DNA from: a virus
Lineage: Duplodnaviria; Heunggongvirae; Uroviricota; Caudoviricetes
Reading direction: 5' to 3' (one strand)
Length of the DNA: 49,583 bases
Virus record (IMG/VR): IMGVR_UViG_2737471854_000004
Coordinates: 1 to 49,583 of that record
Below are positions 29,759 through 31,549 of this stretch, one piece after another (position 1 is the stretch's first letter; each line of letters opens with the position of its first letter). The translations under genes and the position numbers were made by a program. The notes beneath the pieces were generated by a model, which had not been told where the DNA came from, ran no database searches, and saw only the letters and a list, made by a program, of their open reading frames with translations.

Positions 29759-29788
29759 TAAAAAAAACCGCCCGGTAGAGGCGGTTGG
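29759..29788 (-). terminator. Intrinsic terminator upstream of the lysis cassette
   Basis: On the - strand: AACCGCC-loop-GGCGGTT followed by eight Ts. Confidence 0.7.
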
Positions 29789-30147
29789 TCTATGCATGAG
29801 AATAAATCATTTTTATTGTAATAAAAATCAAGGCGTCGGGTGCCTCCCGAAGTATTCCACTTTACATGGATACTGTGGTTTCCCGCTAAATCGAATATAT
29901 AAACCACCCTCGCACTGAGGAACGCCTCAATTCATAGTTTTCGACACAGAGATTGCGCATCACCGGTTTTCCGGTGCTCCATGCTGCTTGCTTTCGGAGG
30001 CAAGCGCCATTTCTTATTCATAAAAAATACAGCACTGAATCTGCAAGAGACCTTCGTAACAGAATGAGGGACGATAATAAAACTACCAAGGTCTGTTCCT
30101 CACGAAAAACGCCAGTGCTGTAAAAATTCACAAAGCCAGAGTAATGA

Positions 30148-30223
30148 TGGAGCGAAGAACAGGAATCGAACCTGCATCATCAACTCAGAAGATTGATGGT
30201 AATAGCCATTATACGATCTCCGC
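30148..30223 (-). tRNA. tRNA-Arg (anticodon UCU), phage-encoded
   Basis: 76 nt folded by hand: 7-bp acceptor stem (GCGGAGA/TCTTCGC, one G-U), T-arm GCAGG-TTCGATT-CCTGT, anticodon loop CU-UCU-GA, 3' CCA encoded, short 3-bp D-stem. Confidence 0.6.
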
Positions 30224-30576
30224 ATGCCGTACTGGCTCACGGAATCACGTGAATTACCGGGAGCCAGCACTGGTCTTTCAGGTGACCTGTAACACCCCTG
30301 TTAACATAAAAGATAAACACCTTCCAGACCACCGCAAATACTAACGGCAGTTTTTCAGACATCAAAATATATTTGGTATTCATTTTTAAATATATGTATA
30401 CATCTGTATCAGAAATATACAACTTATATCATTACTGAATTAAAAATATTGCGTTATTTCTCTGACCGTCTGATTAAAACGTTCCTCCTCCAGTTCGATG
30501 CCAGTCGCGCGACGCCCTGCACTCAATGAAAAAGGCCCGCCGCAGCGTGCCTGTTTTCAATGAGTGCAAAGTTCAA

Positions 30577-31320
30577 TTATTCTTGAGTAACACTTAAACT
30601 CATCTCATTGAATGCAGCCATCCTGTAACCTGCCGGTGTAACACCAAAATAACTCCTGAATACGCTGATAAAATAAGATGTAAAATTATAGCCGCACTGA
30701 GCAGCGATTCTGTTGATGGCGCAACGAGATTGATTCAACAGCATTGCTGCCATTCTCATTCTCTCTGTAAGCAACAACTCACTGAAACAGGTGCCTTCTT
30801 CTTTCAGTCTTTTTTTTAACAAACTTTCACTGATACATAACCGCGAAGACACATCTCTCAGAGTCCAGTTTGCTGCAATGTCCGTACGAAACAATGCACT
30901 AAGCCTGTCACTAATATTGCTAATACACGCGGTCAGAAACGACGAAAACATTTTCTCTGATGAGAAAAACGCCAGACACGAAAAGGAAAGCATTTCCGCT
31001 AAATTGTCCGTATGAATCTTTTCCTCACAAAGATAATCAATCAGGATGCCCATCAATTCTGCCTTGGGAAAACTCACGTAAAGATATCGTGGTATTTGCC
31101 GGACTAAAACTACATCCTGTTTTTCGTCTCCACACAACAGGTAACGGCTAATTGTCGATTCACTGAGACTTATTCGCCGAAAACATTCCGAAAAGGGCAA
31201 TAACGATCCAGCTCCCCCCCTGACAAGAAGTGCACTACCACTTTCAAGAGAGAGCTCTTTTCCTTCAAAGAGCACAACAAACGGGGAATGAACAAAAACA
31301 ACAGAACAGGCTTCATTCAT
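30577..31320 (-). CDS. AraC/XylS-family transcriptional regulator (moron)
   Basis: ORF 30577..31473; start moved to MNEACSV because the upstream part overlaps a terminator; C-terminal double-HTH region typical of GadX/AppY-like regulators; AT-rich. Confidence 0.65.
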   Translation of the reverse strand: MNEACSVVFVHSPFVVLFEGKELSLESGSALLVRGGAGSLLPFSECFRRISLSESTISRYLLCGDEKQDVVLVRQIPRYLYVSFPKAELMGILIDYLCEEKIHTDNLAEMLSFSCLAFFSSEKMFSSFLTACISNISDRLSALFRTDIAANWTLRDVSSRLCISESLLKKRLKEEGTCFSELLLTERMRMAAMLLNQSRCAINRIAAQCGYNFTSYFISVFRSYFGVTPAGYRMAAFNEMSLSVTQE

Positions 31321-31441
31321 ATCAATTGCCCTGACATTACTGGTCACAAGATAAGTATATATCGATTTACAAAAATACAAGCCGAAAGACCAGTATTCGC
31401 AACCACCAGCACGTTTTATGTTCTCTGCCGTTTTTCGGACA

Positions 31442-31466
31442 TAAAAAACCCGCTCAATGGCGGGTT
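31442..31466 (-). terminator. Intrinsic terminator downstream of Q-like gene (tR'-like)
   Basis: On the - strand: CCCGCcattgaGCGGG followed by TTTTTT, about 85 nt after the Q-like stop. Confidence 0.65.
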
Positions 31467-31549
31467 GTATCAAAGTTCATGCGCTTGGTTCGCCTCGCGA
31501 TACAGCTTTGCGAAGCATAGCAAAATTGAAGCAGTTTATACGTAAGAAA

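Follow-up and report, generated by a model that had tools for sequence, protein, structure and literature searches.

A probable phage 21-like late switch, with several terminators, between a DUF1133 Q-like gene and the lysis genes of a lambdoid prophage

How are the lysis genes of a lambdoid prophage reached when several terminators lie between its Q-like gene and its holin? The question is raised by a viral record of 49,583 nucleotides (IMGVR_UViG_2737471854_000004), the whole of which is called the window here. An earlier note on this DNA had pointed out two strong intrinsic terminators on the minus strand, one just past the Q-like stop codon and one ahead of the holin; it took them to bracket a moron and to imply Q-dependent read-through from a late promoter in 31470-31550, and it named free-energy scoring and promoter prediction as checks. 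Our main finding is that the region probably controls the late genes of a lambdoid prophage and has the plan of the phage 21 pR'-QBE-SDPE-tR' cassette, with Q-dependent read-through to the lysis genes. Six terminator-like hairpins, not two, lie on the minus strand between Q and the holin. The interval is framed by the following features.

31550..32092, minus strand: Q-like antiterminator gene, 180 aa, DUF1133 (Pfam, PHROG, hhalign, PDB profile search)
31441..31466, minus strand: T1, tR'-like intrinsic terminator (-11.2 kcal/mol, U6); the predicted RNA that it ends, proximal to the promoter, would measure about 65-80 nt
29786-29759, minus strand: T2, intrinsic terminator
29203..29595, minus strand: first holin gene, Phage_holin_8 (Pfam)
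29267-28938, minus strand: second holin gene (Pfam)
28941-28558, minus strand: M15 endolysin gene (Pfam)

The Q-like protein matches Pfam PF06576 at 5e-107 and PF06530 (Phage_antitermQ) with 28 bits, for a cut-off of 26, and it falls into PHROG 753, 'anti-termination protein Q-like'. When 15 DUF1133 proteins were aligned to Q21 with hhalign, the probability was 94.8% (E = 5e-8, columns 16-178 against 8-151), and the DUF1133 profile found significant matches in the PDB only with the Q21 structures 6p18/6jnx (E = 6e-5). Homology to the Q21/Q933W antiterminator family was thereby found at the profile level; the single sequence reached E = 0.13 at best against the PDB, and a poor AlphaFold model (pLDDT 64) gave no match to the Q21 fold, whose helical body forms the 'nozzle' at the RNA exit and which includes an HT[loop]H motif for DNA binding. 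By sequence, the DUF1133 protein is a remote Q21 homologue and a predicted antiterminator of the Q21 superfamily, in a branch of Q proteins that comprises 911 protein clusters at E <= 0.001. Relatives that are 82-87% identical (in locus L010 of Salmonella, and in L007 and L008) have an Rfam isrK match 45-60 nt past their stop codon, and AntQ of Gifsy-1 occupies the same position upstream of isrK (PMC4825925). Expression of AntQ interferes with termination, an effect that Rho rescues, and its action is reported as global, not confined to a single site (PMC4825925).

T1 and T2 are confirmed as real intrinsic terminators, close to where they had been reported. T1 lies 84 nt past the stop codon (31552-31550), for about 85 nt in the earlier note, and the end of T2 is ~165-170 nt from the holin ATG (29595), for about 160 nt. 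The fold of T1 consists of the stem AACCCGC (31466-31460), the loop CATTGA and the stem GCGGGTT (31453-31447), and its U-run UUUUUU (31448-31443) shares the first two U with the stem end; its minimum free energy (MFE) is -11.2 kcal/mol (z = -3.1 relative to shuffles). That of T2 consists of the stem AACCGCCT (29786-29779), the loop CTACC and the stem GGGCGGTT (29773-29766), with a run of 8 U at 29767-29760 and an MFE of -12.8 kcal/mol in a 41-nt context (z = -2.9). Both are more stable than shuffles, and both are canonical and of moderate strength, unexceptional where 'strong' had been claimed. A GC-rich stem-loop with a U-run and above-background stability was found at T1, T2 and at two further sites described below, T3 and T5 (z-scores of the four from -2.0 to -3.9), and in the surrounding 7 kb there are 22 terminator-like sites, where shuffles have 7.7 +/- 3.2.

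A terminator after Q is common among the relatives: 48 of 50 distinct sequences downstream of DUF1133 genes have a hairpin with a T-run 50-95 nt past the stop, compared to 57 of 500 shuffles (11%), and the terminators after the relatives' Q genes use at least five different stem sequences. In the window, T1 stands after the conserved motif described next and is followed on the same strand by holin, holin and endolysin, the terminator-then-late-genes order of a Q-dependent cassette. On this layout T1 would be the terminator of a Q-dependent late cassette. Three elements make up the motif upstream of it.

31548..31553, minus strand: TTGATT, candidate -35 of pR', overlapping the Q stop codon TGA (31552-31550)
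31525..31530, minus strand: TTCAAT, candidate weak -10, in the conserved block GCTTnAATT and 17 nt past the -35
31514..31519, minus strand: TATGCT, candidate sigma-dependent pause element (SDPE); TG stands before it at 31522-31521

The window has a single occurrence of the composite motif TTG-N20-TTnAAT-N5-TAnGCT, against 0.00 expected, and it falls between the Q stop and T1. Among 31 distinct relatives, at least 90% keep TTG, TTnAAT and TAnGCT. This conservation reaches relatives with a protein identity of 53-62%, and the sequence on either side diverges; the conserved stretch is the 40 nt from the Q stop codon on (31553-31514). The -35 TTG stands at a fixed 34 nt from TAnGCT, also in relatives where it falls inside the coding region, and TTGACT overlaps the Q stop likewise in the isrK promoter mapped in Gifsy-type relatives. 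Of the 51 distinct downstream sequences listed, 46 contain TAnGCT; TATGCT, ~55 nt upstream of T1, is a -10-like hexamer of the class of the SDPE defined by experiment in phage 21 (TAAGCT). At least 90% of distinct relatives preserve the candidate -10 at positions T, T, -, A, A, T, but TTCAAT lacks the consensus A at position 2, so that it is a putative -10 and the fine structure is ambiguous. TGcTATGCT could alternatively be an extended -10, in which case the start would lie near 31507 and the pause element would be TATCGC (31502-31497); this was our initial choice, and it was demoted once the annotation of phage 21 gave TAAGCT as the pause element.

By eye, the window has neither a copy of the phage 21 QBE nor a clear direct repeat. 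The conserved block AAAnTGnTTnAATT / AAACTGCTTCAATT is the only candidate Q-binding element, and a Q-binding site may also lie inside GCTTnAATT. Some distant relatives, in our own reading of the alignment, have AAAGTGA twice, 12 bp apart.

Since 31553-31514 holds a conserved promoter and pause motif with a phage 21-like layout, we place the putative late promoter roughly in the interval proposed before, the candidate -35 (31553-31548) starting 3 nt outside it. T1 might otherwise be merely the 3' terminator of the early-right (nin/Q) operon, with no promoter between Q and T1 and with the late genes driven from elsewhere. In keeping with this, T1 comes directly after the Q gene, the proposed -10 is non-canonical, and a consensus sigma-70 scan of 31470-31553 found no promoter. 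Against it, the 40 nt past the stop are non-coding and yet conserved to 53-62% protein identity, and they include a hexamer of the phage 21 SDPE class at a like spacing from a TTG -35; relatives with the isrK module use a promoter at this very site experimentally; and no other promoter was found ahead of the holin, which T5 moreover blocks from upstream. We consider the absence of a promoter here quite improbable. T1 may also stop read-through from Q, so the two terminator roles are compatible.

Past T1, the interval carries cargo, with the following features.

30577..31320, minus strand: AraC-family (YdeO/GadX-like) regulator gene, 247 aa, cargo block 1 (Pfam HTH_18 and HTH_AraC)
30515..30571, minus strand: compound terminator of the AraC gene (MFE -34.5 kcal/mol, z = -7.3)
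30148..30223, minus strand: tRNA-Arg(UCU), cargo block 2 (ARAGORN; Rfam tRNA 47.8 bits)
29756..29928, minus strand: structured RNA element of ~170 nt, a divergent STnc100 relative, unannotated
29723..29745, minus strand: T3, GGCTCGC-TCCG-GCGGGCC + U5 (hairpin 29745-29728, MFE -14.6 kcal/mol, z = -3.9)

The proposal that two terminators bracket a moron holds on the left, where T1 is the junction: homology to phage vB_EcoS-666R9 and to loci L006, L009 and L115 breaks at 31445, just past T1. On the right it does not, as T2 is internal and ends the STnc100-like RNA, the AraC gene has a terminator of its own, and three further hairpins lie between T2 and the holin. The cargo is composite, made of the AraC block and of a block of ~806 bp with the tRNA and the sRNA, located between two copies of a 26-nt terminator repeat. 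The inner hairpin of the AraC terminator, GGCACGC-TGCG-GCGGGCC + U5, is the first copy (30551-30526), and T3 is the second (29745-29720), the two being 92% identical (direct repeat D1). The AraC terminator of E. coli strain A2 is joined directly at the T3 point, and the tRNA and sRNA block is therefore missing there; the tRNA, element and T2-T3 blocks are duplicated in L001 and L115. Module breakpoints are found at 31445, 30526/29745, 29786 and 29687, the last being where homology to the phiP27 holin module begins. The cargo is modular, and terminator hairpins are the points where its modules join.

The best NCBIfam match of the AraC-family protein is YdeO (148 bits, under the equivalog cut-off of 348). 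As expected of a moron, the gene has its own terminator and is present or absent among otherwise identical Q-T1 cassettes; of an own promoter, there was none at >=8/12, no sigma-70-like match of that quality being found between T1 and the AraC ATG. A relaxed scan (>=8/12) of the AraC-tRNA, tRNA-T2 and T2-holin gaps gave just weak matches at 30443, 30365, 30103 and 29921, and two weak sigma-70-like matches only lie upstream of the tRNA. These weak or missing matches do not support the earlier suggestion that AraC gene and tRNA have transcripts of their own in the lysogen. The GC content of the AraC cargo (40-45%) is below that of the lysis genes (52-61%) and like that of the Q gene.

The element that ends in T2 consists of a four-way junction (29928-29828), an AU-rich linker and the T2 hairpin (29786-29766) with U8. 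Of 5426 complete E. coli genomes, 309 (~6%) carry it, with T2 as its 3' end; a search in phages gave only 2 records, and it is known mostly from prophages. At all of eight genomic loci it lies ~220-760 nt past phage tRNA genes, and a lysis cassette follows in seven of them, the other being UMNK88, with TerB/DUF3927 downstream, where the locus ended. RNAalifold predicted 34 pairs from 12 sequences; 99% of the cells are paired, and compensatory change is seen at 6 of the pairs. This was reached by 0 of 500 shuffles (slid controls were 40-54% paired), and the T2 stem with its U8 is kept in 12/12 aligned copies.

At the gathering threshold, Rfam detected only the tRNA in the region. Rfam STnc100 (RF02076) matched the element with 19.5 bits (E = 0.05 in a 561-nt search), below its gathering threshold of 47, and we therefore file the element as a divergent STnc100 relative, not as a member. 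Reciprocally, a model of the window-type element matched genuine STnc100 loci over its full length, at the same position and strand (28.9 bits, E = 3e-4). Other sub-threshold matches (Hrs13, isrK, Trp_leader, Phe_leader and anti-hemB) were rejected, being carried by the terminator hairpins alone. The element resembles PasD by eye only. BLAST against the PasD2/PasA region of E2348/69 gave no similarity, and PasD2 was not matched by the model built from this type of element.

It is conceivable that the terminators mainly mark sRNA genes, T1 that of a trans-acting RNA like IsrK or StxS and T2 that of an Hfq-binding RNA like STnc100 or PasD, late control being secondary. StxS and IsrK are functional sRNAs from just such pR'-tR' units, Pas and STnc100 sRNAs adjoin holin operons, and the T2 element combines a covariation-supported structure and STnc100 kinship with two traits that are usual in Hfq sRNAs, an extended AU-rich linker and a U8 tail. 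However, the predicted pR'-T1 RNA has no significant structure beyond its terminator (z = -1.7 versus shuffles for the 5' part), that 5' part is swapped for unrelated sequence in close relatives, and the search for a promoter ahead of the T2 element found none. We regard this reading, which is compatible with a phage 21-like switch, as somewhat unlikely. A more specific proposal gives the element a function within the late leader: it might, for instance, be a stable RNA that is cotranscribed with the tRNAs, released by processing and able to regulate host targets through Hfq in the lysogen, with the pR'-T1 RNA as a parallel regulator of the StxS/IsrK kind. This proposal seems to us doubtful.

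The holin leader (29800-29596) folds with z = -4.7 and contains, past T3, the following hairpins.

29715-29700, minus strand: stable GC hairpin without a U-run, not counted as a terminator
29674-29653, minus strand: H4, stable hairpin with a poor U-run, not counted as a terminator
29615..29636, minus strand: T5, GGGCC-GCTGGA-GGCCC + U6 (hairpin 29636-29621, MFE -11.6 kcal/mol)

T5 is 25 nt ahead of the holin ATG and directly upstream of the ribosome binding site GGGAGG; the holin concerned (29203..29595) belongs to PHROG 198, 'holin'. A hairpin with a T-run near this site (stem end 21-26 nt before the ATG) is found in 10 of 13 distinct Phage_holin_8 loci, the window excluded. The GGGCC/GGCCC stem is kept in nine loci with a varying loop, and L121 has the variant GGGGC..GGCCCT. 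T5 thus appears to travel with the holin module, so that any transcript reaching the holin would have to pass a terminator.

T2, T3, H4 and T5, which all lie between the tRNA and the holin, might also be recombination scars or linkers of mosaic phages, with no regulatory role. The coincidence of all the module breakpoints listed above with hairpins speaks for it, as do the 92% identity of T3 to the AraC terminator and the duplicated tRNA, element and T2-T3 blocks in L001 and L115. The T5 stem and U-run, kept with a variable loop at 10 of 13 distinct loci, and the T2 stem and U8, kept in 12/12 copies, nevertheless look selected as terminators, and the roles of linker and terminator are compatible. 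That these hairpins are scars alone is, in our judgement, very unlikely.

Q-dependent read-through remains the best reading of the region, given an upstream antiterminator of the Q21 superfamily and a phage 21-like layout of motif and terminator. The following course of events, from promoter and start site to pausing, Q loading and read-through, is our inference. A constitutive late promoter at the Q stop (-35 TTGATT at 31553-31548, weak -10 TTCAAT at 31530-31525) would start transcription at ~31520 +/- 3, directly at the -10-like TATGCT (31519-14), where sigma-70 would make RNA polymerase pause close to the promoter. When Q is absent, polymerase would stop at T1 and leave a short RNA of about 75-80 nt. 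The DUF1133 protein, when present, would load onto the paused polymerase and render it terminator-resistant, allowing it to read ~1.9 kb via T1, the AraC terminator, T2, T3 and T5 into holin-holin-endolysin. The internal terminators would end any transcription of the cargo (AraC regulator, tRNA-Arg and STnc100-like RNA), prevent expression of the lysis genes in the lysogen and also serve as junctions for module exchange. Precedents for a short terminated RNA from pR' come from lambda, 21, phi80, 82, P22, Stx phages (StxS) and Gifsy-1 (IsrK) (PMC7547250).

This analysis provides a testable map of the late switch for a large, biochemically uncharacterised branch of Q proteins, covering the candidate promoter and pause hexamer as well as T1 and the four to five terminators beyond it. 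The DUF1133 Q family would govern lysis and, in related prophages, also Stx2e- or LT-II-type toxin cargo located in the same interval. The T2 element adds a widespread structured RNA overlooked by current annotation. The textbook mechanism is unchanged: the region would be an ordinary lambdoid-prophage switch, in almost exactly the layout of phage 21.

The late regulatory cassette of phage 21 (Q21, pR'21, QBE, SDPE and tR'21) was reportedly described by Yin, Kaelber and Ebright in 2019. In the annotation of phage 21 record OL657228, the order is Q stop, -35, QBE, -10, TSS, SDPE TAAGCTG, terminator, tRNAs and holin. The window resembles it in the succession of Q, a candidate -35 within a few nt of the stop, a candidate pause hexamer, a predicted short terminated RNA, tRNA(s) and holin; phage 21 has TTGACA 36 nt before the SDPE TAAGCT(G), itself right after the mapped start, and the window has TTGATT 34 nt before TATGCT. 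It differs in that the Q-like protein is 23% identical to Q21 (hhalign) with an insertion of ~30 aa, the spacer is without phage 21's ATTGAGCA/AATGAGCA direct repeat, the -35 is TTGATT as opposed to the consensus TTGACA, the predicted terminated RNA is about 75-80 nt versus ~50 nt, and ~1.9 kb of cargo with five more hairpins precedes the holin.

The Gifsy-1 AntQ/IsrK system shares with the window a DUF1133-family Q (82-87% identity in L010, L007 and L008), a -35 (here a candidate) that overlaps the Q stop, and a short terminated RNA with partial read-through downstream and then lysis genes, which for the window is a prediction (PMC4825925). Unlike in Gifsy-1, the promoter-proximal RNA here is unrelated to IsrK in sequence and the C4/orf45/anrP anti-repressor module is absent, while the isrK-type cassette is without TAnGCT. 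The layout predicted here also resembles that of Stx phages (pR'/tR', StxS) and lambda (6S RNA), where transcription from a constitutive late promoter is terminated close by in the lysogen; the cargo that follows tR' in Stx phages (stx, tRNAs), ahead of the lysis genes, owes its expression to Q read-through (PMC7547250). Their Q and pR' sequences differ from those of the window, whose cargo is an AraC regulator and not a toxin. From pR' to tR', Stx phages span 258 nt, as against a predicted ~75-80 nt here; the figure for lambda is 194 nt.

The T2 element is similar to STnc100 (RF02076) and PasD in its site (same strand, past Q and ahead of the lysis genes), and in an outer helix around hairpins with CCUC..GAGG and CGGGAGGCACCCG motifs, followed by a linker and a terminator. 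The covariance-model matches with STnc100 are reciprocal and weak, and the subtype found here differs in always coming after tRNA genes (eight loci). As in the moron concept of HK97/HK022, an extra gene with its own terminator, variable in presence, sits between late modules; the AraC cargo differs from such morons in having no identifiable promoter of its own and a GC content no different from that of the Q gene. The YdeO/GadX-type regulator itself can be likened to the prophage AraC-like regulators AppY and PatE (PMC10057817, PMC10877973).

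The region 32978-28558 is the Q-to-lysis interval of a lambdoid prophage. Our analysis confirmed that the two hairpins proposed in the earlier note to bracket its moron segment (an AraC-family gene and a tRNA), T1 and T2, lie on the minus strand as described; they are canonical terminators of ordinary strength. The notion of two brackets is nevertheless too simple, as the same strand carries further hairpins after the AraC gene and between T2 and the first holin:

32978-32379, minus: DUF1367 gene
32379-32089, minus: YbcO-like nuclease gene
32092-31550, minus: DUF1133 protein gene, 180 aa
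31553-31548, minus: TTGATT, overlapping the TGA stop of the DUF1133 gene
31530-31525, minus: TTCAAT, candidate -10
31522-21, minus: TG
31519-31514, minus: TATGCT
31466-31441, minus: T1, AACCCGC-CATTGA-GCGGGTT, with U6 at 31448-31443 including the final two stem bases; MFE -11.2 kcal/mol
between the DUF1133 and AraC-family genes, minus: gap of 230 nt
31320-30577, minus: AraC-family, YdeO/GadX-like gene
30571-30515, minus: compound terminator directly 3' of the AraC stop, -34.5 kcal/mol
30223-30148, minus: tRNA-Arg(UCU)
between the tRNA and the Phage_holin_8 gene, minus: ~550 nt of non-coding DNA
29756-29928, minus: structured RNA element of ~170 nt (four-way junction, linker, terminator), also in L001, L006, L115 and L117-L124 (related loci)
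29786-29759, minus: T2, AACCGCCT-CTACC-GGGCGGTT, with U8 at 29767-29760 including the final two stem bases; MFE -12.8 kcal/mol in context
29745-29728 plus U5, minus: T3
29715-29700, minus: GC hairpin
29674-29653, minus: H4, hairpin
29636-29621 plus U6, minus: T5, 25 nt before the holin ATG
29595-29203, minus: Phage_holin_8 holin
29267-28938, minus: second holin
28941-28558, minus: M15 endolysin

In the 7-kb neighbourhood, 22 sites resemble terminators, where shuffled sequences give 7.7 +/- 3.2, and the 205-nt holin leader folds with a z-score of -4.7.

With BLAST, most alignments over the T2 region begin at 29928 and finish with the T-run. Of 5426 complete E. coli genomes, 309 contain this ~170-nt element, and none has it annotated. 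All eight genomic loci fetched have phage tRNA genes ~220-760 nt upstream of it, and in seven a lysis cassette follows, sometimes with TerB/DUF3927 genes between; the element is preceded by a DUF1133 Q, by a lambda-type Q or by a DNA methylase. The RNAalifold consensus of 12 diverse copies has an outer helix around four hairpins, then an AU-rich linker of ~55 nt and finally the terminator, with 34 pairs and 99% of cells paired, compared to just 40-54% in a control with slid partners; compensatory changes occur at 6 pairs, and none of 500 shuffles reached the observed values. The Rfam STnc100 model matches the element at full length but weakly (19.5 bits, cut-off 47). R1, a covariance model built from its junction core, gave 117 bits in the window, at least 98 bits for 12 other copies in 11 loci, 60-70 bits for intermediates, and 28.9 bits (E = 3e-4) for genuine STnc100 copies of L005-type loci; each of these matches falls between Q and the lysis genes, on the same strand as Q. 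The relation to STnc100 is weak, though it holds in both directions. From the covariation-backed element that ends in T2, together with these matches, it follows that T2 serves a divergent STnc100-type RNA as its terminator and does not mark the edge of the moron. STnc100 is related to the EPEC sRNA PasD, and Pas sRNAs adjoin holin operons (recent preprint); PasD2 matched neither the element by BLAST nor R1. A further full-length but weak R1 match at 43176-43300, on the plus strand and far from the late leader (18.8 bits, E = 0.09), is probably due to chance. In L098 and L108 (4776-4883), a core variant (R1 60-70 bits) lies only ~230 nt past the Q stop, directly behind the cassette of candidate late promoter (pR') and T1; transcription past tR', the first terminator downstream of pR', can therefore reach an STnc100-like element before anything else.

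Several of the hairpins coincide with module junctions. Homology with phages including vB_EcoS-666R9 and with L006, L009 and L115 spans Q and T1 and ends at 31445; beyond that point the sequence continues in at least eight different ways among the relatives. A 26-nt sequence occurs twice in direct orientation, 806 nt apart and with 92% identity: once at T3 (29745-29720) and once as the inner hairpin within the terminator of the AraC gene (30551-30526), so that the repeats flank the block of tRNA-Arg and STnc100-like RNA. E. coli strain A2 has a single, collapsed copy and lacks the block, which suggests its gain or loss by recombination between terminators. In other relatives the junction with the holin module lies at 29786, in the T2 stem, or at 29687 (phiP27). 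Besides the window, 10 of 13 distinct Phage_holin_8 loci have a hairpin and T-run 21-26 nt before the holin ATG, with a variable loop and a GGGCC/GGCCC stem kept in nine; the holin gene is thus preceded by a terminator of its own. The 'putative holin' CDS deposited for phiP27 (L002 4053-4487) starts at an ATG inside the T5 hairpin (ATGGGCCGC...); the start that RefSeq uses in E. coli lies 42 nt further downstream, and the deposited CDS is probably over-extended.

Besides having a terminator of its own, the AraC gene follows some identical Q-T1 cassettes and is missing from others. In the 120 nt from T1 to its ATG, no sigma-70-like site (at least 8 of 12) was found, and the 30%-GC DNA that precedes the tRNA holds only two weak ones. 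By analogy with AppY and PatE, this cargo may plausibly be expressed independently in the lysogen, as previously proposed. In RefSeq, the same gene is annotated as 158 aa in strain C41 (L004 3346-3822) versus 247 aa in other strains, and its product name varies as well ('helix-turn-helix domain-containing protein', 'AraC family transcriptional regulator').

Elsewhere on the minus strand, two genes between endolysin and small terminase (26241-27957) encode a ParB_N-like protein (27166-27957) and a TET-associated-glycosyltransferase-like protein (26241-27194; PF20691, 1e-34); they may form a DNA-modification module, and no TET/JBP gene was seen near them. The prophage also has two type I toxin-antitoxin loci, one with RalA antitoxin sRNA (47849-48027, minus; Rfam, 224 bits) and one with sok antisense RNA (33592-33765, minus; Rfam, 92 bits) that overlaps a hok-like ORF (33442-33654).

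The DUF1133 gene (Pfam match 5e-107) barely exceeds the cut-off of Phage_antitermQ PF06530 (28 bits, cut-off 26); PHROGs labels its family 'anti-termination protein Q-like', and a survey of Stx phages already labelled DUF1133 'Q antiterminator (HHpred)' (PMC8136144). With hhalign, 15 aligned DUF1133 proteins matched phage 21 Q (Q21) over nearly its full length, with an insertion of ~30 residues (probability 94.8%, E = 5e-8), and among all PDB sequences the profile significantly matched only the Q21 structures 6p18 and 6jnx (E = 6e-5). Relatives with 82-87% identity (Salmonella L010, L007/L008) carry Rfam isrK RNA 45-60 nt past the stop codon, the place described for AntQ of Gifsy-1; expressing AntQ interferes with termination, with rescue by Rho (PMC4825925).

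The 106 collected loci with a DUF1133 gene yielded 50 distinct downstream sequences, 48 of which have a hairpin and T-run 50-95 nt past the Q stop codon; among 500 dinucleotide shuffles, 57 do. Several unrelated stem sequences occur (AACCCGCC, AAACCGC, AACCACC, CCCGC, GCCCGAGG, GACGCG). Alignment anchored on an invariant hexamer revealed TTG-N20-TTnAAT-N5-TAnGCT, in which each named base is conserved in at least 90% of 31 distinct sequences, from loci with protein identity as low as 53-62%; the motif occurs once in the 49.6-kb window (0.00 expected), where TTGATT, TTCAAT and TATGCT form it, with TG ahead of TATGCT. The candidate promoter falls where the late promoter had been placed (31470-31550), except that it begins 3 nt further upstream, and this holds under either of two readings. 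TATGCT may be a pause element, with transcription predicted to start at ~31520 +/- 3 and an RNA terminated at T1 of a predicted ~75-80 nt. We find this reading fairly probable, because phage 21 has a pause hexamer, TAAGCT, of the same TAnGCT class at a similar distance from the -35 start (36 nt, versus 34 nt in the window) and the same gene order, leader tRNA genes included. The proposed -10, TTCAAT, is without the A at position 2, and a consensus promoter scan at the proposed Q-T1 promoter was negative. TGcTATGCT could instead be an extended -10, with a start near 31507 and a pause site at TATCGC (31502-31497), a layout that we hold possible but on balance doubtful.

The late switch is of a well-known kind, with phage 21 as its closest model, and the earlier interpretation of a Q-dependent late promoter followed by tR' was probably right in its core. 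The fully annotated phage 21 genome (OL657228) has, in order, the Q stop, -35 TTGACA, the Q-binding element ATTGAGCA AATGAGCA, the -10, the mapped start, the pause element TAAGCTG, the terminator, tRNA-Asn and tRNA-Thr, and the holin. Relatives of isrK type have a TTGACT -35 that overlaps the Q stop codon as TTGATT does in the window; IsrK, lambda 6S RNA and short RNAs of phages 21, phi80, 82 and P22 have been treated as products of such promoters (StxS paper, PMC7547250). In Gifsy-type relatives (L007 4575-4776; L010 1290-1476 and 4588-4768, thus two modules in Salmonella), a module of isrK and C4-antisense, the latter a P1/P7-like anti-repressor control, replaces the TAnGCT cassette after the DUF1133 Q. 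Modestly new are the probable pause hexamer that cassettes of the DUF1133 branch share, an STnc100-like RNA missing from annotations, and the joining of modules at terminator hairpins.
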